Below, piece after piece: positions 9,742-49,187 of a stretch of DNA of 53,190 nucleotides. The stretch is from Candidatus Saccharimonadales bacterium (GTDB lineage Bacteria; Patescibacteriota; Saccharimonadia; Saccharimonadales; DATKHC01), in contig DATKHC010000014.1 of NCBI GenBank assembly GCA_035510465.1, positions 1 to 53,190 on the forward strand. The letters run 5' to 3'. Positions within the stretch are counted from its first letter, which is position 1; the number at the start of each line of letters is the position of its first letter. The notes beneath the pieces were generated by a model. It saw nothing but the letters and a program-made list of their open reading frames with translations. It was not told where the DNA came from and made no database searches. The position numbers and the translations under genes were made by a program.

Positions 9742-9948
9742 TTAATGTTTTCTAGGTTTAACTTCGTTTCGACCTAAGTTTTTCTTAGTCTCTGTAAATA
9801 GGACATGCTTTCGTAGCACTGGATCATACTTCTTGATACTTAACTTATCAGGAGTATTCATCTGATTCTTAGAGGTATAGTAAACTCGGTGTCCTGTTGC
9901 TTCTGAAACTAGTCCGACTAACTTTCTCTTATCGCCTTTTTTTGTCAT
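9742..9948 (-). CDS. rpmG: 50S ribosomal protein L33, Zn-free (C-minus) form
   Basis: [10 protein letters not shown]...[19 protein letters not shown]; no Cys; adjacent to tRNA-Trp. Confidence 0.93.
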
Positions 9949-23894: not shown

Positions 23895-24011
23895 CTACCC
23901 CTGTCTCTGCTTATGGCGAGGTTTAAGTTTATTGATTATATAAACCCGTCCTTTACGACGGACGATCTTATCATCTGGACTTATTTTCTTGACGCTAGCA
24001 CGAACTTTCAT
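23895..24011 (-). CDS. rpmJ: 50S ribosomal protein L36, Zn-free form (below the ORF-track length cutoff)
   Basis: Manual translation: [38 protein letters not shown]. Confidence 0.96.
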
Positions 24012-24061
24012 AGAAGCCACTCTTCCTCGCTTAATGGTTTATTTTGGTGGATAATGTTTGT

Positions 24062-28337: not shown

Positions 28338-28607
28338 CTACCAGCTAGACTTAGTAACTCCCGGTATCTCACCTTTACTAGCATGTTCTCTGAAAGATAT
28401 TCTGGATAGGCCGAATTGACGCATATACGCCCTTGGACGACCCGTCTCACTGCATCTGTTTTTCCAACGGGTTGGACTGGAGTTTCTAGGAAGCAAATGT
28501 AACGCTTCGTGATCACCTTCAGTTTTTAATTGCTCACGCTTAGCGGCATACTTCGTAATCATTTTCTGACGCTTTAAGTCTCTTGCAACTGCTGATTTCT
28601 TAGCCAT
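28338..28607 (-). CDS. rpsN: 30S ribosomal protein S14, 89-aa Zn-free type
   Basis: [21 protein letters not shown]...GLSRISFRE...KSSW; only one Cys. Confidence 0.96.
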
Positions 28608-40140: not shown

Positions 40141-43100
40141 TTACTCCTCAGCGTCAACGCTGTCGGACTCCTTAGAATAGGGCGAATGGCCATAACCAGT
40201 TCCAACTGGTATAAGCCGACCCAAAATAACGTTCTCTTTTAAGCCAAACAAATGGTCAACTTTACCGCTTGTTGCAGCAGCAATTAGAACCCTTGTTGTG
40301 TCCTGGAAACTAGCTGAGCTTAAGAATGAGTCGGTTGTTAGGCTTGCTTTGGTAATACCAAGTAGTAATTGGCTATACTTGATCGGTTTCTTATTCCCGC
40401 GAACCAGTTGATCATTAACCTCGACTACCGACAATTTACTGGCAATATCTCCTGTAACGAACTCACTATCTCCAGCTTCCTCAATTTGAACTCGACTAAA
40501 CATCTGTCTAATTATGATTTCCAAATGTTTATCGGCGATGCTCTGACCTTGTGAGGCAAAGATACGCAAGATTTCATTCATTATGTAGCGCTGAGTTGCT
40601 TCAATGCCCTTTAATGCCATCAAATCATGAAGGTTAATAGAACCATTGGTAAGCATCTGTCCTTTTTCGACCTGCCCACCGTCTTTAACCAATATCTGAC
40701 GATAGCCAGGGATATCATGTCTAACTACACTCTGTTCTGAGCGTACAATGACTGCCTCTTTATCAGTGAACTCAACTATTCCAGAAACAGGAGCGAGTAG
40801 CGGCTCTATTGTGCCTTTAGCTTTGGCAGAAGCTAGGATGTCGCCAACTGCCACTAAACTCCCGCCATCTAGTTGTGGTTTACGGTTTTTAAGAGGAAGT
40901 TTGGTTGATTTGCCTTTATCGTCGAGGGCTGTAATCTGAACGACATAGTGATCAGCTTCCTCCCATACATTGACGGTTCCGCTGATATCGGCAAGCACTG
41001 CTTGTCCTTTTGGTGCTCTAACTTCAAACAACTCTTCAACTCGAGGTAGACCAGTCGTAATATCCTCGCCAGCTACACCACCCGCATGGAAGGTCTTTAG
41101 GGTAAGCTGCGTACCTGGTTCACCGATACTTTGAGCAGCAATTACGCCAACAGGGTGATGTGACGCAACTAGCTCGCCGGTTGCTGGGTCAATCCCGTAG
41201 GACTTCCTGGAAACTCCACGGACACTAGTAGCTGATAGTGCACTTAAGATACGTACTCCATCAATTGATTTATCGGCATCAATTTTCTCAGCAACTTCTT
41301 TTGTTATTAGCTCGCCTGACTTTATTAGTTTATTAACTGGTCCGGCTGTGAAACGTCCTTCGAGTCGAGACGCGTAGCTAACACCGACTTCTTTGGCATC
41401 GCCACGGTAGACCGGGAAACCTGGATCATCATCTTGATCGTCAATCGTGAACACATCTTGAGACACGTCAACCAGTCGTCTGGTCAAATAACCTGAGTCG
41501 GCAGTCTTTAGAGCTGTGTCAATTAATCCTTTTCGAGCTCCACGGGCAGCTGTGAAGTATTCCAGTGGAGTTAAACCTTGCTTATAGTTACTCCTAATTG
41601 GCAGCTCAATGGCTCGACCAGTTGTGTCGGCCTGAATTCCAACTGTACCGACGGTCATTTTTACCTGTCCAATACTGCCTCTAGCACCTGACAACACTGC
41701 TATCGACATCGATGAATCCTGCTTAGTAAATTGGTTGACTAGTAACTCTTGAATTTTGTTATCAGCTTCCATCCAGATCTCAACGGTTAGTCGATATCGT
41801 TCGGAATTATTGATAAGCCCTTCGTTATACTGATCAGCAACAACTTTAGCCTTTTCTTCAGCAGCGGTAATTTCTTCATCCATACCGTCGATATCGTTGA
41901 AGTCACCCATACCCATAGATAGTCCTGATACGGTTGCGTAATTAAAGCCGAGTTGCATTAGTTTGTCAGCGATTTCAGCAGCTTGGGCTTGGCCATACAT
42001 AGCGTAAGCAGTTGCCATAGCGCTTTGGAGTTTCTTCTTAGACATGGATTCATCTAAGAATGGGAAATCATCTGGGAAGATCTCATTGAACAAGAATCGT
42101 CCAAGTGTGCTCTCGTGCTTTGAACCCCGGAAATTTATTCTTATCCTGCTATGCAGAGTAATAATTCCGGCGTCGTAAGCCATTAAGGCTTCATGAAGAG
42201 ACGAGTAAGGACGGATTTTATTCATTTCTTCAGTCGATCGGTCATATGTTAAGTAATAACAACCGAGCACGATATCTTGTTCGATGTGTAGTATTGGCGA
42301 ACCGTCAGCTGGTTTCAGCAAGTTCTTGTTACTAGCCATGATTTCTCTGGCTTCTTTTTGTGCATCATCAGAAAGAGGTAAATGAACTGCCATTTGGTCA
42401 CCATCGAAATCTGCGTTAAAGCCTTTACATACCAATGGATGTAGTTGAATAGCTTTCCCCTCGATCAGAACCGGCTGGAAGGCTTGGATACTTAGTCTGT
42501 GAAGACTTGGAGCTCGGTTAAGAAGGACATACTTACCTTTAATTACTTCATCAAGTGCGTCCCAAACCGCTGTTTCACCCAGTTCGATCATTCGAGTGGC
42601 TGAGCGTATATTGTGAGCCTGGTCATTATGGATCAAGTGTCCAATTACAAATGGTTTGAACAGTTCAAGCGCCATCATCTTCGGGAGACCACATTGGTAA
42701 ATTCGAAGCTCAGGTCCTGAAACAATAACTGATCGGCCCGAGTAATCTACTCTTTTTCCTAACAAGTTCTGCCTGAATCGACCCTGTTTACCCTTTAGCA
42801 TGTCGGATAGTGACTTAAGTCTGCGGTGTTGGCCAGTTGCGGCAACGGCTCGACCTGAACGAGTACTATTGTTATCAATCAAAGCATCGACTGCTTCTTG
42901 AAGCATTCGCTGTTCGTTTCGTCTAATAACCTCAGGAGCTTTCAACTCAATTAACTTCTTTAGTCGGTTGTTTCGGTTGATTACGCGGCGATATAGATCA
43001 TTTAGGTCGGAGGTAGCAAATCGGCCACCAGTTAACTGAACCATTGGACGCAGATCTGGGGGAATCACTGGAAGTACTGTAAAGCACATACTACCTGGCT

Positions 43101-43965
43101 TAATGCCAGCTCGCTGCATTGATTCAAGAAGTCGCAGTCGCTTCATTAGTTTCTTTTTACGCTGACCTTTTGCCTCTTCAGATTCTTTGGATAGTTGTTC
43201 GATTAAAGTGCTTAGATTAATTTCATCAAGAAGTTCCTTGATTGCGACTCCACCCATACCAACTTTTATAAGCGAGGATACTTCCTCAGGAAGGAACCGG
43301 TAATCGTTTTCAGAAATCAGATTTAGTTTTTCGAGCGCACTTAGCTGATCTTTGACAGCTGCGTAGTTAGTAGTCAGCTCTTCAATTTCTTTAGTTTGCA
43401 TCTCTGCTAGAGCTTTAATGTTAGCGTTTTCAGCTTTTGCTTCAGATTCAAAACGCAGTTTGATAGCTTCTTTAGCAGCATTAAACTCAGCTTCTTTCTC
43501 AGCAATCATTTGGTCACGCTTTTCACGATCAACCTTGGTGATTATGTAAGCTGCGAAATAAACTACTCGCTCTAAATTCTTAACTGTCATTCCAAGAAGC
43601 AGTCCAATTGCGGAAGGAGTTCCACGCAGGAACCAAATGTGCGCAACTGGAGTAGCTAGATTAATGTGGCCCATTCGCTCACGTCTAACGATAGACTTGG
43701 TAACCACTTCACCGTTCTTATCGACAGCCGCTTCACGGCTTCTAATACCTTTATATTTGGCATCGTGAGGATTGATGTCTTTAACGGGACCGAAAATTCG
43801 CTCACAGAAAAGACCATCTCGCTCAGGTTTTTGAGTTCTATAGTTAATAGTCTCGGGTTTAGTTACCTCACCATAACTCCACTCCAAAATATCCTCAGGG
43901 CCTGCTACCGCTAATCGAACAGCGTCGAATTCGGCAATATTTGTTCCGGTATTGTAATTTCTCAC
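40141..43965 (-). CDS. rpoC: RNA polymerase beta' subunit lacking all Zn-ligand cysteines (GTG start overlapping the rpoB TGA)
   Basis: [39 protein letters not shown]. Confidence 0.99.
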
Positions 43966-46900
43966 GCCTGTTCCTCCTTTAAATCTTCATCAATATTCGA
44001 TATCACTGCAGCATCGTCGAGTGGGATGTTGTCGTCACTAACCTGAGCAGCATCACCACCCGTGCCATCATCCGGCAGCGGTTCATCCAGTCCCACAACA
44101 GAAAATTCATTCACACTAACGTCTTCAGTAACGTCAATGCCAGAAATTTCGCTGTCAGGTACATCTACTTTAGATGCATGCTTTGCTTCGTCTTCTATGC
44201 TGCTAGCTAGTACTTCTTCGGCATCAACTATCTTGTTGGATGTAATTAGATCCACCTTCAAACTCAGTCCTTGAAGTTCCTTAACTAAGACATTGAAACT
44301 CTCTGGAACTTTTGGACCAACGATCTCAGTGCCCTTAATAATAGACTCGTAAGCCTTGGACCTTCCATAAACATCGTCTGACTTGATAGTTAGCATTTCT
44401 TGGAGTGAATAGGCTGCTCCATAAGCTTCTAGGGCCCAGACTTCCATCTCGCCAAATCTCTGACCACCATTTTGAGCTTTTCCACCAAGTGGTTGTTGGG
44501 TAACCATTGTGTATGGACCAGTTGAACGAGCGTGGATTTTATCAGTTACCATGTGCTCTAACTTGAGTACATGCATAACGCCAACAACTGTTCGTTCTTT
44601 AAACTTCTCACCTGAACGTCCATCATACAATTCTTGCTTACCGTCTTCTGGAAGACCTGCCTTACCAAGAAGTTCACGGATCTTTTCAATGGAGACTCCG
44701 TTAAATGGTGGTGTGGCTATTTTAAGCCCGAGAGCCGTAGCAGCCATACCAAGGTGAGTCTCAAACAACTGACCAATGTTCATTCTAGAGGGGACACCCA
44801 TAGGGTTAAATACGATATCAACAGGTGTGCCGTCTGCCAAAAATGGCATGTCAGCAATTGGCAGTACTCTTGCGATAACACCCTTGTTACCGTGTCGGCC
44901 AGCTAACTTATCACCAACTTGAATCTTTCGCATCTGGGCAACAAAAACTTGGATCTGCATAATCACACCGGATTTAAGTTCATGACCTCTTTCTCTTGAG
45001 AATATTTTGACGCCAACAACTTTTCCGTGTTTACCATTGCTCATGCGTTCTGAAGTATCACGTACTTCCTTGGCTTTTTCACCAAAGATAGCTCGAAGTA
45101 ATCTCTCTTCGCTGCTTAGTTCCTGTTCGCCTTTTGGCGTAATCTTTCCAACTAGTATATCTCCAGGGTGAACCTCAGCACCAATTCTAACGATACCGTC
45201 CTCATCTAGATGTCTTAATACCTCATCCGAGACATTAGGGATGTCGCTAGTAACAATTTCAGGTCCAAGCTTTGTTTCACGAACCTCAACCATGAAGTCC
45301 ATAATATTAATAGAGGTGAATACATCTTCCTGGACTAAACGCTGTGAAATAATTATGGCGTCTTCGAAGTTATAGCCATTCCAAGGCATAAATGCGACCA
45401 TTACGTCACGACCTAGGGACAATTCTCCGCCACTAATACTCATTCCTTCGATTAACGGTTGCCCCTCAACTACTTTGTCGCCGGAGCTGACTACAACCTT
45501 CTGGTTCATTGAAGTGCCTTCGTTACTTCTTTGGAAGTGCAGCGGGTAGTATGTTTGGCTGTGATTTTTGTATTTAACTATGACTTCGTCGGCCACAGCT
45601 TTAGTTACAACTCCGTTTTCTTCAGCAACAATAAGTTGTGAAGTGTTTAGGGCTAGGGTTCTTTCAAAGCCAGTCCCAATTGTAGGAGACACAGGATTAA
45701 CAAGTGGTACGGCTTGCTTTTGTTGGTTAGCACCTACTAGTGCGCGGTCTACTCGGTCCTTTTCGATAAATGGAATAAGCGTCGCGTTAGCACCAATAGT
45801 CTGGTTAGGAGTGGCGTCAAGGTGAGTAACCTGATTAGAGTCAACCTCACCAGTCACCAAACGATTCCTAGCACTTACTCGCTCATCAACAAAATAACCT
45901 TCCTCGTCAAGCGCACTGTCAGCACTGGCGATTACAGCGTTTTCCTCTTCAGCAGCATCCAAAAACAAGATTTCATCAGTCACTCTAGCCTTAACGGGCC
46001 AGGTTACTTGATTCTTAACACTAGCTAGCTGTTTCGCAGCAGCTGCAGTAATTTTCTTGCCGGCAGCGACAATCAGCTTACCTTTTTCAGTTTCTAAATT
46101 AACAGCAGCAACATATCCAACTGCATCTTTGGCGGTAACTGCGTTAACTACTTTTCTATATGGTGTCTCAATAAAACCAAAGTCATTAATTCTGGCATAG
46201 CCAGCAAGATTTAATACTAGTCCAATATTTGAACCCTCAGGGGTTTCTACAGTACAAATACGGCCATAGTGAGTGGCGTGAGCATCACGAACTTCAAATC
46301 CGGCTCTCTCCCTACTCAAGCCTCCTGGGCCCATTGAACTTAGACGTCGTTTGTGAGCAAGTTCAGAAAGCGGGTTAATTTGCTCCATGAACTGAGAAAG
46401 CTGAGATATTGCGAAAAATTCACGAACAGCTGCAACTACAGGTCGAGCATTAATTAATTGAGCAGCCGTAACGGTCTCGATCTCGTTCATGCTCATGCGG
46501 TCTTTGGTATTCCTTTGCATTCGAAGTAGACCGATTCTAAACTGCCTCTGGACAAGCTCGCCTACTAATTTAACTCGGCGGTTAGCCAAAGAGTCAATGT
46601 CGTCAGCAGGATCTTGGGTATTATTAAGTCGAATGATCTCAGCAACGATAGCGATTAGGTCCTCAAGTCGCATGACTCGGTTCTCGATAGTATTTGGAAC
46701 CTTAAGATCAAGTCGTTTGTTTATCTTATAGCGACCTACTCTTGAAAAATCAAAGCGCTGGAAGTTATAAAGCATGTTCTCGATAAGAGATCGAGCGTTT
46801 TCGACTGTTGCGAGATCACCTGGTCGCAAACGACGATAGATTTCAATTAGGGCGTCATTAGTTCCTCTAGCTGGGTCTTTTTTAAGAGTAGTGTCAACGT

Positions 46901-47555
46901 AGCTCAATTTTCCCTGATCTACGTGCGCAAAAGCCTCGTGAATCTGTTTTTCGTTCATTCCAAGTGCTTTTAGTAGAGTCGTGACAGGAATTTTACGTTT
47001 ACGGTCGATTTTGACATACAATACACCAGCTGTGGTGGTTTCAAATTCAAGCCAAGCTCCACGGTTTGGAATAACTTTGGCTCCGTATAGGTTAGTTGTG
47101 CCCTGGTTGTCGGCAGTGAAGAATACTCCGGATGAACGAATTAACTGACTTACAACAACTCGCTCAGCTCCATTGATAACGAAAGTACCCCGACTAGTCA
47201 TCCATGGGTAATCACCAAGGTATATCTCTTGCTCTTTAATTTCACCAGTAACTTTATTAGTAAGCTCGACTTTAGCTTTTAAGGGTGCCTCGAATGAGAC
47301 ATTATTTATCCGTGCTTCACCTTCTGTCATTTTCGGATCTTCGAAATGATAATCTTTGAATCTTAGTGACAACTTAGTGCCGGTATAGTCGTCGATTGGA
47401 CTAATTTCGGCAAATAAATCACTGAGTCCCTCTTCTACTAGCCATTTAAAGGACTTGCTCTGATGATCCACTAGGTTTGGTAAATCTAGTAGTTTATCAG
47501 TCTTACTAAAATATGTTCTGTTTGAAATGTCGCGCGTGGAGGTGACGCCTGCCAT
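43962..47555 (-). CDS. rpoB: RNA polymerase beta subunit with acidic C-terminal tail (ATG 47555; ORF track start 47561)
   Basis: SQLSQFM, GDKLAGRHGNKG, GQRFGEME. Confidence 0.99.
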   Translation of the reverse strand: MAGVTSTRDISNRTYFSKTDKLLDLPNLVDHQSKSFKWLVEEGLSDLFAEISPIDDYTGTKLSLRFKDYHFEDPKMTEGEARINNVSFEAPLKAKVELTNKVTGEIKEQEIYLGDYPWMTSRGTFVINGAERVVVSQLIRSSGVFFTADNQGTTNLYGAKVIPNRGAWLEFETTTAGVLYVKIDRKRKIPVTTLLKALGMNEKQIHEAFAHVDQGKLSYVDTTLKKDPARGTNDALIEIYRRLRPGDLATVENARSLIENMLYNFQRFDFSRVGRYKINKRLDLKVPNTIENRVMRLEDLIAIVAEIIRLNNTQDPADDIDSLANRRVKLVGELVQRQFRIGLLRMQRNTKDRMSMNEIETVTAAQLINARPVVAAVREFFAISQLSQFMEQINPLSELAHKRRLSSMGPGGLSRERAGFEVRDAHATHYGRICTVETPEGSNIGLVLNLAGYARINDFGFIETPYRKVVNAVTAKDAVGYVAAVNLETEKGKLIVAAGKKITAAAAKQLASVKNQVTWPVKARVTDEILFLDAAEEENAVIASADSALDEEGYFVDERVSARNRLVTGEVDSNQVTHLDATPNQTIGANATLIPFIEKDRVDRALVGANQQKQAVPLVNPVSPTIGTGFERTLALNTSQLIVAEENGVVTKAVADEVIVKYKNHSQTYYPLHFQRSNEGTSMNQKVVVSSGDKVVEGQPLIEGMSISGGELSLGRDVMVAFMPWNGYNFEDAIIISQRLVQEDVFTSINIMDFMVEVRETKLGPEIVTSDIPNVSDEVLRHLDEDGIVRIGAEVHPGDILVGKITPKGEQELSSEERLLRAIFGEKAKEVRDTSERMSNGKHGKVVGVKIFSRERGHELKSGVIMQIQVFVAQMRKIQVGDKLAGRHGNKGVIARVLPIADMPFLADGTPVDIVFNPMGVPSRMNIGQLFETHLGMAATALGLKIATPPFNGVSIEKIRELLGKAGLPEDGKQELYDGRSGEKFKERTVVGVMHVLKLEHMVTDKIHARSTGPYTMVTQQPLGGKAQNGGQRFGEMEVWALEAYGAAYSLQEMLTIKSDDVYGRSKAYESIIKGTEIVGPKVPESFNVLVKELQGLSLKVDLITSNKIVDAEEVLASSIEDEAKHASKVDVPDSEISGIDVTEDVSVNEFSVVGLDEPLPDDGTGGDAAQVSDDNIPLDDAAVISNIDEDLKEEQA

Positions 47556-47738
47556 AAGCAAATTACTCCCTATTAAACTTATTCACATTTTCTGTTGTTT
47601 TTTTAGTGCGCGAAGCTCACTACTAAGGGATTTTTGGTGTAACTTTTAGCAAAAACTAGCACTGCCCGACGTATTCTACTTCTTACATACTAGTTTGAGT
47701 AACTTGGCCTTAATTGTCAAGCTTTTTAGCAAAAAATC

Positions 47739-48455
47739 TCAATCTTTTCTGGGCGATGCTAAGGGCTTCTTTTTATTACTTTTCCAGTCATATGGATCAG
47801 CATTTCCGTTTACCCCATTAGAGGTACGCCTGGGCCTATCTGCCAAACCAACCACACGGCGACCACTTCCAGTCTTTACTGCGTGTTGTGGGCGTCTTAA
47901 TTCCCTTTCCGTGGCAGCATCGTCTCTCCTGTTCTGTCTTTCATCTAATATCTTTTTTCTTAGTAGAGCTGTGCTTTGTGCGGCAGGAGACCAGGGATCC
48001 ATACCTTGGTGATATGAGTGCCTAGCTCCTATGAAAGGACGCCTTCCAACCTCTTGTAGGGCAGCGCTCCCTATAGCCGCGGCTGCAGTCAGAGCAAGCC
48101 CAAGGCCATTCTCGTATGTTGCAGACGCTCCGACTACTGACAATGCAAGTGCGCCGGGCCAGTCAAGTAGTCCATCCACTAATCTTCTAATACGCCTGCT
48201 CCTGGTACCCTCATCGGCTTCTGCTTCCCTGATAATTTCCAGATCACCGTCTATAATATCGGCTTCAGTTACGACGTGGGGAGCTTCTGGCTCCTCGGTA
48301 ATGCCAGAGATCAGGCGTAAATGCCCAATCTTTATCTCGGGTTTAGGTATCGGGGCAGGAGGCGTTGGTACGTCTTGTTCCTCAATAGGACCTATTAAAT
48401 AATCTCGTTGTCTGCCGTTAGTACCTACTGACGAGACCCAATTTCCAAATTCCAT
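47739..48455 (-). CDS. Hypothetical membrane protein (ORFan)
   Basis: 238 aa; two hydrophobic Ala-rich helices; promoter TTGCAA-N16-TATGTT (48489-48462) 6 nt before ATG. Confidence 0.6.
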   Translation of the reverse strand: MEFGNWVSSVGTNGRQRDYLIGPIEEQDVPTPPAPIPKPEIKIGHLRLISGITEEPEAPHVVTEADIIDGDLEIIREAEADEGTRSRRIRRLVDGLLDWPGALALSVVGASATYENGLGLALTAAAAIGSAALQEVGRRPFIGARHSYHQGMDPWSPAAQSTALLRKKILDERQNRRDDAATERELRRPQHAVKTGSGRRVVGLADRPRRTSNGVNGNADPYDWKSNKKKPLASPRKD

Positions 48456-48511: not shown

Positions 48512-49141
48512 CTATGGGGTTTTTAGATTCTTTATAACGCCGTCAACCAAACCGTATTCCTTAGCCTCACTGGCGCTCATGTAATAATCTCTTTCCATAT
48601 CGGCGTGCAACTTAGCTGGTTTCTGTCCGGTGTTTTTAGCCATTATCTCTTCGAGTTGTTTCTTAATCTTTAAGGATTCTTCTAGGTCAATTTCCATATC
48701 GGTAACCCGACCCCTTGCAGCAGAGGAAGGTTGGTGGATCATTACCTTACCATGCGGCAAGATAAAACGCTTGCCCTTTGCGCCACTACTAAGTAGAACT
48801 GCAGCAGCTGAAGCGGCAATACCAACGGATATGGTTTGTACATCCGATTTTACATAATTCATAGTGTCATAGATCGCTAGGGCACTATAAACACTTCCGC
48901 CTGGACTATTGATGTATATGGAGATATCCTTTTTCGAGTTTTCACTATCAAGGAATAACAGTTGGGCTACAACCAGGTTAGCGACGTGATCGTCAATGGG
49001 GGAACCTAAGAAGATAATTCTATCCTTTAGTAGCCTAGAGTAAATATCATAAGCTCGTTCAATTCGACCATCACTTTCAATAACTGTAGGGATTAAAATT
49101 TGGCTTGTTGGGTTTAGCATATTAGCTGGTTCTCCATTCAT
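48512..49141 (-). CDS. clpP: ATP-dependent Clp protease proteolytic subunit (ATG 49141 preferred; ORF track start 49171)
   Basis: [27 protein letters not shown] (Ser), MIHQP (His), ERD (Asp). Confidence 0.97.
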
Positions 49142-49160
49142 AATATATATGATAACTTTA

Positions 49161-49187
49161 TTAGCACTCACTAGTCAAGAGTGCTAA
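49161..49187. promoter_or_regulatory. Perfect CIRCE element (HrcA operator) overlapping the clpP -35 box
   Basis: TTAGCACTC-ACTAGTCAA-GAGTGCTAA; on the minus strand TTGACT lies in the spacer and TATCAT at 49154-49149. Confidence 0.93.

Follow-up and report, generated by a model that had tools for sequence, protein, structure and literature searches.

Can a bacterial RNA polymerase do without the structural zinc of its beta' subunit? The two zinc sites of beta' are usually taken as fixed features of the bacterial enzyme, and the second of them (Zn2; the N-terminal one is referred to as Zn1) is, according to Markov et al. (1999), required for the E. coli beta' to fold and assemble. The question is raised by rpoC, the beta' gene, on a 53,190-nucleotide stretch of DNA from a Candidatus Saccharimonadales bacterium (assembly GCA_035510465.1, contig DATKHC010000014.1, positions 1 to 53,190), the whole of which is referred to as the window. 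A first-pass annotation, made from the sequence alone, had claimed that Zn2 is abolished in this subunit alongside an intact NADFDGD active site. The loss extends to both sites, as all eight ligand cysteines are missing from this beta'. It is likely that this is the working, sole beta' of a Saccharimonadales-type bacterium in which packing of protein alone has taken over from both Zn(Cys)4 sites, and that the core enzyme is most likely without structural zinc. The gene, the segments concerned and the adjoining rpoB are the following.

40141..43965, minus strand: rpoC, RNA polymerase beta', 1274 amino acids, identified by phmmer matches to solved beta' chains and by Pfam Rpb1 domains 1-5, the sole match in the genome.
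43702..43782, minus strand: the former N-terminal zinc-binding domain, amino acids 62-88, in which C70/C72/C85/C88 are now P66, D68, V81 and N84, placed by alignments and unchanged in length.
42397..42417, minus strand: the catalytic Mg-binding motif NADFDGD, intact, amino acids 517-523 of the translation.
41416..41448, minus strand: the segment where the first Zn2 ligand (C814 in E. coli) would stand, amino acids 840-850, Cys-free, placed by alignments and bearing a new, clade-invariant 'DPGF' motif.
41194..41250, minus strand: the place of the Zn2 ligands C888/C895/C898, amino acids 906-924, now A912, S919 and S922, placed by alignments.
43962..47561, minus strand: rpoB, the beta subunit, 1199 amino acids with one cysteine, directly upstream of rpoC in the same operon.

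The gene is a canonical rpoC by content and by context. RpoC has all five Rpb1 Pfam domains (PF04997, PF00623, PF04983, PF05000 and PF04998; E 1.9e-71 to 1.8e-05), and 110 beta' sequences from the PDB were matched at E = 0 by phmmer. The bridge-helix segment and a 13-residue trigger-loop-type motif are invariant in the RpoC alignment, and the active site is confirmed as intact at residues 517-523. The GTG start of rpoC and the stop of rpoB overlap by 4 nucleotides, and rpsL, rpsG, fusA and tuf lie downstream, which gives the canonical order rpoB-rpoC-rpsL-rpsG-fusA-tuf. The 1.07-Mb, 24-contig source genome holds a single rpoC match, and 36/36 high-quality relatives likewise have one rpoC only.

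The numbering of the Zn2 ligands (C814/C888/C895/C898) fits the E. coli beta' sequence, and positions 41191-41460 of the minus strand correspond to residues 836-925 of RpoC. When aligned to solved beta' chains with HMMER, the first Zn2 block ('dvftid.dqdddpg') lies over 'dvivretdcgtrkg' (8i23_D and 7l7b_D, E = 0), and the second, the 19 residues 906-924, lies without gaps over 'irsvltchseygvcakcyg', confirming the earlier description of a gap-free replacement of Cys by Ala, Ser and Ser. The Zn2 ligand columns are occupied here by Q844 (HMMER) or D845 (MAFFT), A912, S919 and S922, and an alignment of 27-residue segments shows the first zinc site to be equally devoid of its ligands. RpoC has five cysteines in total, scattered at positions 54, 294, 425, 513 and 569, with none in residues 570-1274; as RpoB has one cysteine and RpoA none, no Cys4 site is possible in the core enzyme. 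The claim that the second site has been abolished is thus supported, and the gene itself is otherwise intact, present in one copy and maintained by purifying selection. Misalignment was not borne out as a problem, given that Zn2 lacks a Cys set in 112 close homologues and that all three C-terminal ligand columns are Cys in 31/31 zinc-bearing ones. Artefacts more generally, be they misalignment, a pseudogene, a contaminating contig or sequencing error, have nothing in their favour and are vanishingly improbable, in view of the gap-free alignment at E = 0, the open frame of 1274 residues, the canonical operon context and the presence of the same state in 57 genomes and more than 200 database proteins.

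Compared with the canonical beta' subunits of E. coli, Thermus, Bacillus, Mycobacterium and Clostridioides, with which it shares 45-55% identity at E = 0, this beta' is alike in family, domain order, NADFDGD, bridge helix, trigger-loop motifs and rpoBC operon. It differs in that the eight zinc-ligand cysteines have been replaced without insertions or deletions. The ligand-bearing segments are kept at full length and have been recast into new conserved, clade-specific motifs (...SYGxDPATG), as is apparent from residue counts in an alignment of 112 zinc-less and 31 zinc-bearing homologues. In the Zn1 segment, whose mean column identity is 90% (30 genomes, 30 families), I64, P66, H67, D68, K70, K72, G73, R75, R77, E78, A80, D82, K83 and G85 are each found in 112/112 zinc-less sequences. 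The Zn2 region is similarly marked by the 'DPGF' motif (D847 and G849 in 112/112, P848 and F850 in 107/112), by F839, which is present in 112/112 zinc-less sequences where zinc-bearing ones have Ile or Val, by Met or Leu at position 907, which is Arg in 30/31 zinc-bearing sequences, and by SYGxDPATG in place of CYGRxLAxG. The former Zn2 ligand columns themselves vary among the 112 zinc-less sequences: column 845 holds Ala in 25, Cys in 23, Ser in 18, Asp in 12, Val in 9 and Thr in 8; column 912 Cys in 57, Ser in 36, Ala in 10 and Thr in 8; column 919 Ser in 53, Pro in 29, Gly in 18 and Thr in 9; and column 922 Ser in 109, Cys in 2 and Ala in 1.

Does the domain still fold when its ligands are gone? 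AlphaFold2 was run on residues 1-1200 of RpoC with 143 aligned sequences, and on a zinc-bearing beta' from a sister order (L032) as a control with the same alignment. The mean pLDDT was 79.5 for the zinc-less subunit and 80.3 for the control. Over residues 831-930 the values were 78-91, as compared with 80-95 in the equivalent stretch of the control, and the order of strands and helices in the Zn2 region was identical. The Zn2 region is thus predicted about as confidently as its zinc-bearing counterpart, which supports the notion that the fold may be retained there. The N-terminal domain scored low in both models (52-62 zinc-less, 55-65 control); since the control shares this property, the low score is not due to the lost cysteines.

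The loss reaches far beyond this one gene. The two zinc regions were read in 57 genomes of the same order (34 families) and in 33 genomes of other orders of the class (20 families): both sites are missing in 57/57 of the former, whereas every cysteine is kept in 33/33 of the latter, one of these sequences ending before Zn1. The cysteines are also kept in Paceibacteria, Parcubacteria, Gracilibacteria (read in code 25), Minisyncoccia and Nomurabacteria, one Paceibacterota sequence having Ser at a single Zn1 position, and in Bacillota, Actinomycetota, Chloroflexota and one Mycoplasma. In an IQ-TREE maximum-likelihood tree of 88 RpoC sequences, the 39 zinc-less ones form one clade (SH-aLRT 100) with a single state change, and the nearest clade consists of the zinc-bearing families f45, f46 and f50. 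Hence the loss of both sites happened a single time, on the stem branch of the order, which measures 0.18 substitutions per site and is not longer than neighbouring branches. The whole order has this double loss as a synapomorphy, which purifying selection has maintained since, so that its members probably rely on a core polymerase devoid of zinc.

Members of the order include bacteria of the human mouth. The large same-order family f38 contains 'Candidatus Saccharibacteria bacterium oral taxon 488' and 'Candidatus Nanosynbacter sp.', whose beta' subunits are 94-100% identical to the f38 query over the zinc-less N-terminal segment, and human oral TM7, for which there are laboratory co-cultures, therefore share the trait.

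Beyond these genomes, a library of 1.84 billion proteins was searched with residues 20-1010 of RpoC. Of 29,130 representative hits, the best 150 include 5 of the double-loss (Saccharimonadales) type and 4 that have kept Zn1 and miss Zn2 (P0042, P0049, P0053 and P0082). Among the sequences examined, the double loss was seen only in Saccharimonadales. A full-text search of the literature did not find a description of a zinc-less beta', in Saccharibacteria or elsewhere, and a study of how RNA polymerase has eroded in endosymbionts reports none (PMC8321222).

One of the four Zn2-less hits, P0042, belongs to the Verrucomicrobiota class Opitutae. Zn2 is missing in 120/120 of the best hits to its Zn2 region (P0411-P0529), which carry the names Opitutales, Puniceicoccales, Opitutae and that of the cultured Cerasicoccus arenae, and the Zn1 Cys4 ribbon is kept in 112/112 full-length Opitutae hits. 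The Opitutae consensus at Zn2, VKVMSPLTH...AKAYGIDPST, can be set beside IMSxLS... in Saccharimonadales and iRSvltC...GvCxkCYGrnLAtg in zinc-bearing subunits. As in Saccharimonadales, the Arg before the old C888 has become Met and CYGRxLA has been changed, here to AYGIDPST, so that the two groups share YGIDP[AS]T. The Opitutae, which are unrelated to Patescibacteria, differ in having kept the N-terminal Cys4 ribbon, and one zinc is left. At least one further independent loss of Zn2 alone has thus taken place on a large scale, in Opitutae, besides those in three further metagenomic lineages, and the convergent motif argues for a defined, metal-free closure of this part of the fold. We know of no paper on the Opitutae loss. 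Recurrent loss means that Zn2 is not indispensable in bacteria, and the loss of Zn2 alone is therefore less of a surprise than the first-pass annotation held when it called it striking. The double loss, together with its coincidence with the loss of other zinc sites, keeps the interest of the case fairly high.

The polymerase is not the only protein concerned. The source genome was compared with G041, a genome that is complete and comes from the closest of the zinc-bearing orders; the two share 383 reciprocal-best orthologues. Relative to this sister, 19 C-x(1-4)-C knuckles are wholly lost in the source genome and 6 are gained. Six proteins have lost two or more knuckles (RpoC, LeuRS, GlyRS, GatB and two T2SSE ATPases) and none has gained two or more; the CHC2 ribbon of DnaG, the C4 finger of RecR and the ligands of S14 are also lost. 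Proteome-wide avoidance of cysteine was rejected as an explanation, as cysteine makes up 0.68% of residues in the source genome and 0.58% in G041; within the orthologues, 294 cysteines are confined to the source genome, 279 to the sister and 250 are shared. A complete abandonment of zinc ribbons was rejected too, since CxxC pairs are kept in DnaJ, UvrA, PriA, RadA, NrdR, Fpg, MsrB, IleRS and a Fur-family protein. The gene for the latter lies at C1:4569-5000 (Pfam FUR), and rpoC lies in the constitutive rpoBC operon.

Five proteins were then compared in 15 genomes of the order and 15 of its sisters. The C4 finger of RecR is lost in 15/15 genomes of the order and kept in 14/14 of the sisters, and GatB shows a like division for its CxC...CxxC, with 15/15 genomes of the order lacking it and 15/15 of the sisters having it. 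The CHC2 ribbon of DnaG is lost in 15/15 genomes of the order, all of which have HDFSSG instead, and is missing as well from five sister families (f47, f51, f52, f55 and f57) that belong to another subclade, one with a zinc-bearing RpoC; the same HDFSSG is found in these, through either convergence or gene transfer. In the DnaG of the source genome (C2:4661-6403), the Zn_ribbon_DnaG domain is still recognized (Pfam 1.7e-27), with CPFH...HCFGC changed to SPFN...HDFSSG. The stem of the order thus saw the loss of at least five Cys-zinc sites, spread over four proteins (two sites in RpoC, and those of RecR, GatB and DnaG), in a class where zinc-site turnover is frequent. This turnover is seen in LeuRS, GlyRS, S14 and L36, whose zinc forms are patchy in the order and its sisters alike. 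GlyRS, for example, occurs across the class in two forms, with either a CxxC...CPxCG insertion or a Cys-free one (EDVKTKKRYRxDHLL...KSPDGNEL), mixed in both. Both T2SSE ATPases of the source genome, which are of the PilB/GspE type (C8:41721-43322 and C20:6721-8523), have lost a CxxC...CxxC that their G041 orthologues keep. Three ribosomal proteins encoded in the window are of interest in this regard.

9742..9948, minus strand: rpmG, ribosomal protein L33, in a Cys-free form.
23895..24020, minus strand: rpmJ, ribosomal protein L36, in a Cys-free form with KKISPDDK...IINKLKPRH instead of C..C...C....H.
28338..28607, minus strand: rpsN, ribosomal protein S14, in a long form of 89 amino acids without the CxxC...CxxC zinc site.

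L36 is Cys-free here and in G007, and has CxxC...C....H in G037, a genome of the same order (L198), and in the sister-order G041 (L187). As a member of the order has kept the cysteines, the switch in L36 came later than the loss in RpoC, and the idea that all losses of ribosomal and aminoacyl-tRNA synthetase zinc sites fell on the stem was rejected on account of this protein and of the patchiness of S14, LeuRS and GlyRS.

Two observations concern the surroundings of rpoC. A Cys-free open reading frame of 238 amino acids (47739-48455, minus strand) lies between clpP (48512-49171) and rpoB, at the usual position of rplL/rplJ. In G004, a genome of the same family that is 50% complete and consists of one contig, rpoC is matched only in pieces at C1:633813-637614, with dozens of in-frame TGA/TAG/TAA stops, as in a very poor assembly or a decayed gene.

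How might the two segments be held together? Zn2 connects the stretch that follows the bridge helix with the one that precedes the trigger-loop helix, and its metal would have been replaced by a small hydrophobic, turn-based core, for which F839, D847-P-G-F850, M907 and S922-Y-G-x-D-P are the proposed residues. The Zn1 ribbon could be held by packing of P66/V81 together with a charged network of D68, E78, D82, K70, K83 and R77, with the basic residues that face nucleic acid apparently kept. Several things weigh against such protein-only packing: AlphaFold2 is blind to metals and the packing is proposed from sequence only; roughly half of the order has retained one Cys where C888 would be, and in some members a Cys lies beside the C814 position; and H67, D68, E78 and D82, found in 112/112 close relatives, could in principle hold a metal at Zn1. 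These cysteines are a remnant and, as such, a sign of erosion and not of design. The four Zn1 residues, and the acidic stretch D842-D847 around the old C814 position, with its invariant D847, are what favours the view that zinc or another metal is still bound at the sites, with His, Asp or Glu as substitute ligands. At Zn2 no such set is possible, because the C-terminal ligand columns are A/S/C/T, S/P/G/T and S, and the presence of Pro, Gly and Ala in former ligand columns excludes it. At Zn1, Pro and Val/Ile occupy two of the old ligand positions, several other families of the order, and P0004, have N, Y or F in place of H67, and no more than two carboxylates are conserved throughout the order. 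Substitute ligands are therefore very unlikely, and protein-only packing is the preferred reading.

Why the sites were given up is a matter on which the evidence is more divided. Adaptation to zinc scarcity, a constitutive, genome-encoded sparing of zinc in essential machinery akin to that under Zur, is a serious yet tentative possibility. It accords with the loss of five Cys-zinc sites in four core proteins on a single stem branch, with the Cys-free state of the main copies of L36, L33 and S14 in the window, and with 19 knuckles lost as compared with 6 gained, with no change in total cysteine, relative to one sister genome. The losses in L36, S14, LeuRS and GlyRS are patchy, however, and fall off the stem. 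ZIP importers are commoner in the order (29/46 genomes) than in its sisters (38/105), and the source genome has a ZnuA-like gene, so that loss of zinc uptake, too, was rejected as a cause; DnaJ, which is abundant and has four CxxC, keeps its pairs, as do UvrA, PriA, RadA, NrdR, Fpg and MsrB; and RecR and DnaG, which did lose their sites, are low-copy proteins, in which the zinc saved is negligible. A bolder proposal is that this is the first known cellular multisubunit RNA polymerase without any structural zinc and that one stem episode stripped Zn(Cys)4 sites from the polymerase (twice), primase, RecR and GatB, freeing the core machinery from zinc as a permanent, genome-wide counterpart of regulated zinc sparing; that proposal is speculative and less likely than not. 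Compensated drift in small, bottlenecked epibiont populations, whereby a site became redundant and then decayed without benefit, might also account for the losses, and should be regarded as a plausible but unsettled candidate. The relict Cys at the C888 position and the variable ligand columns are consistent with it, as are the frequent and patchy turnover of zinc sites in the class (DnaG lost in a second clade; GlyRS, LeuRS, S14 and L36 mixed) and the independent loss of Zn2 in Opitutae and three other lineages. Drift accounts less readily for site losses in four proteins on one branch with none regained in 57 genomes, for the very strong constraint on the new motifs, or for the convergence of Opitutae on the same motif, which suggests a defined alternative fold over decay.

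That the Cys-zinc sites were removed because of their vulnerability to oxidants (oxygen, H2O2 or hypochlorite, from hosts or environment) is rather unlikely. Human oral strains do occur within the order, and in M. smegmatis exposed to NaOCl, increased thiol oxidation of RpmG, RpmJ, other Zn-ribbon ribosomal proteins and an RpoC cysteine has been reported (PMC5430705). There is no reduction in total cysteine, though, the redox-sensitive zinc sites of DnaJ are kept, and Fe/Mn superoxide dismutase is rarer in the order (16/46 genomes, as compared with 60/105 in the sisters) and missing from the source genome; with this enzyme as a marker, a link to an oxic lifestyle is thus unsupported. A functional cause was considered for Zn1 as well. 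Several partners dock on the N-terminal zinc domain: sigma and promoter spacer DNA, nascent RNA, antiterminators, Rho and the coupled ribosome. Rho_RNA_bind (PF07497) was matched in 0/151 Saccharimonadia genomes, the zinc-bearing orders included, and in 9/14 control genomes. The class thus appears to be without Rho altogether, and a tie between the loss of the zinc domain and the loss of Rho was rejected, as the Rho domain is missing class-wide.

The nearest known parallels are the Cys-minus paralogues of L31, L33, L36 and S14, which are reportedly regulated by Zur, and the Cys-free DksA2 (reported by Makarova 2001, Panina 2003 and Blaby-Haas 2011). The likeness consists in a Cys4 ribbon given up for a working, metal-free version, and the L36, L33 and S14 of the window belong to this type. 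In the Zur-type systems, however, the Cys-free proteins are regulated spares and the zinc-bearing copy is kept, whereas here the sole copy of an essential subunit of 1274 residues is zinc-less; to our knowledge, no alternative beta' exists in any bacterium. The archaeal and eukaryotic homologues, Rpo1 and Rpb1, have the homologous double-psi beta-barrel and, in Pol II structures, no known zinc at the position equivalent to Zn2; the fold can thus manage without zinc there. These polymerases carry other zinc sites, in the clamp core and in several small subunits, and no cellular multisubunit polymerase is known to have been reported as wholly without structural zinc.

What is new here is that the beta' of a known enzyme is without either structural zinc site, and that this state is fixed in a whole order. 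Such an order constitutes a natural experiment on the role of beta' zinc, and the Opitutae, with a cultured member among them, provide a second natural case for Zn2 alone, and with it a ready-made, convergently evolved, metal-free replacement of that site. The losses in RecR, GatB and DnaG on the same branch extend the matter to the wider question of metal economy in ultra-small epibiotic bacteria.

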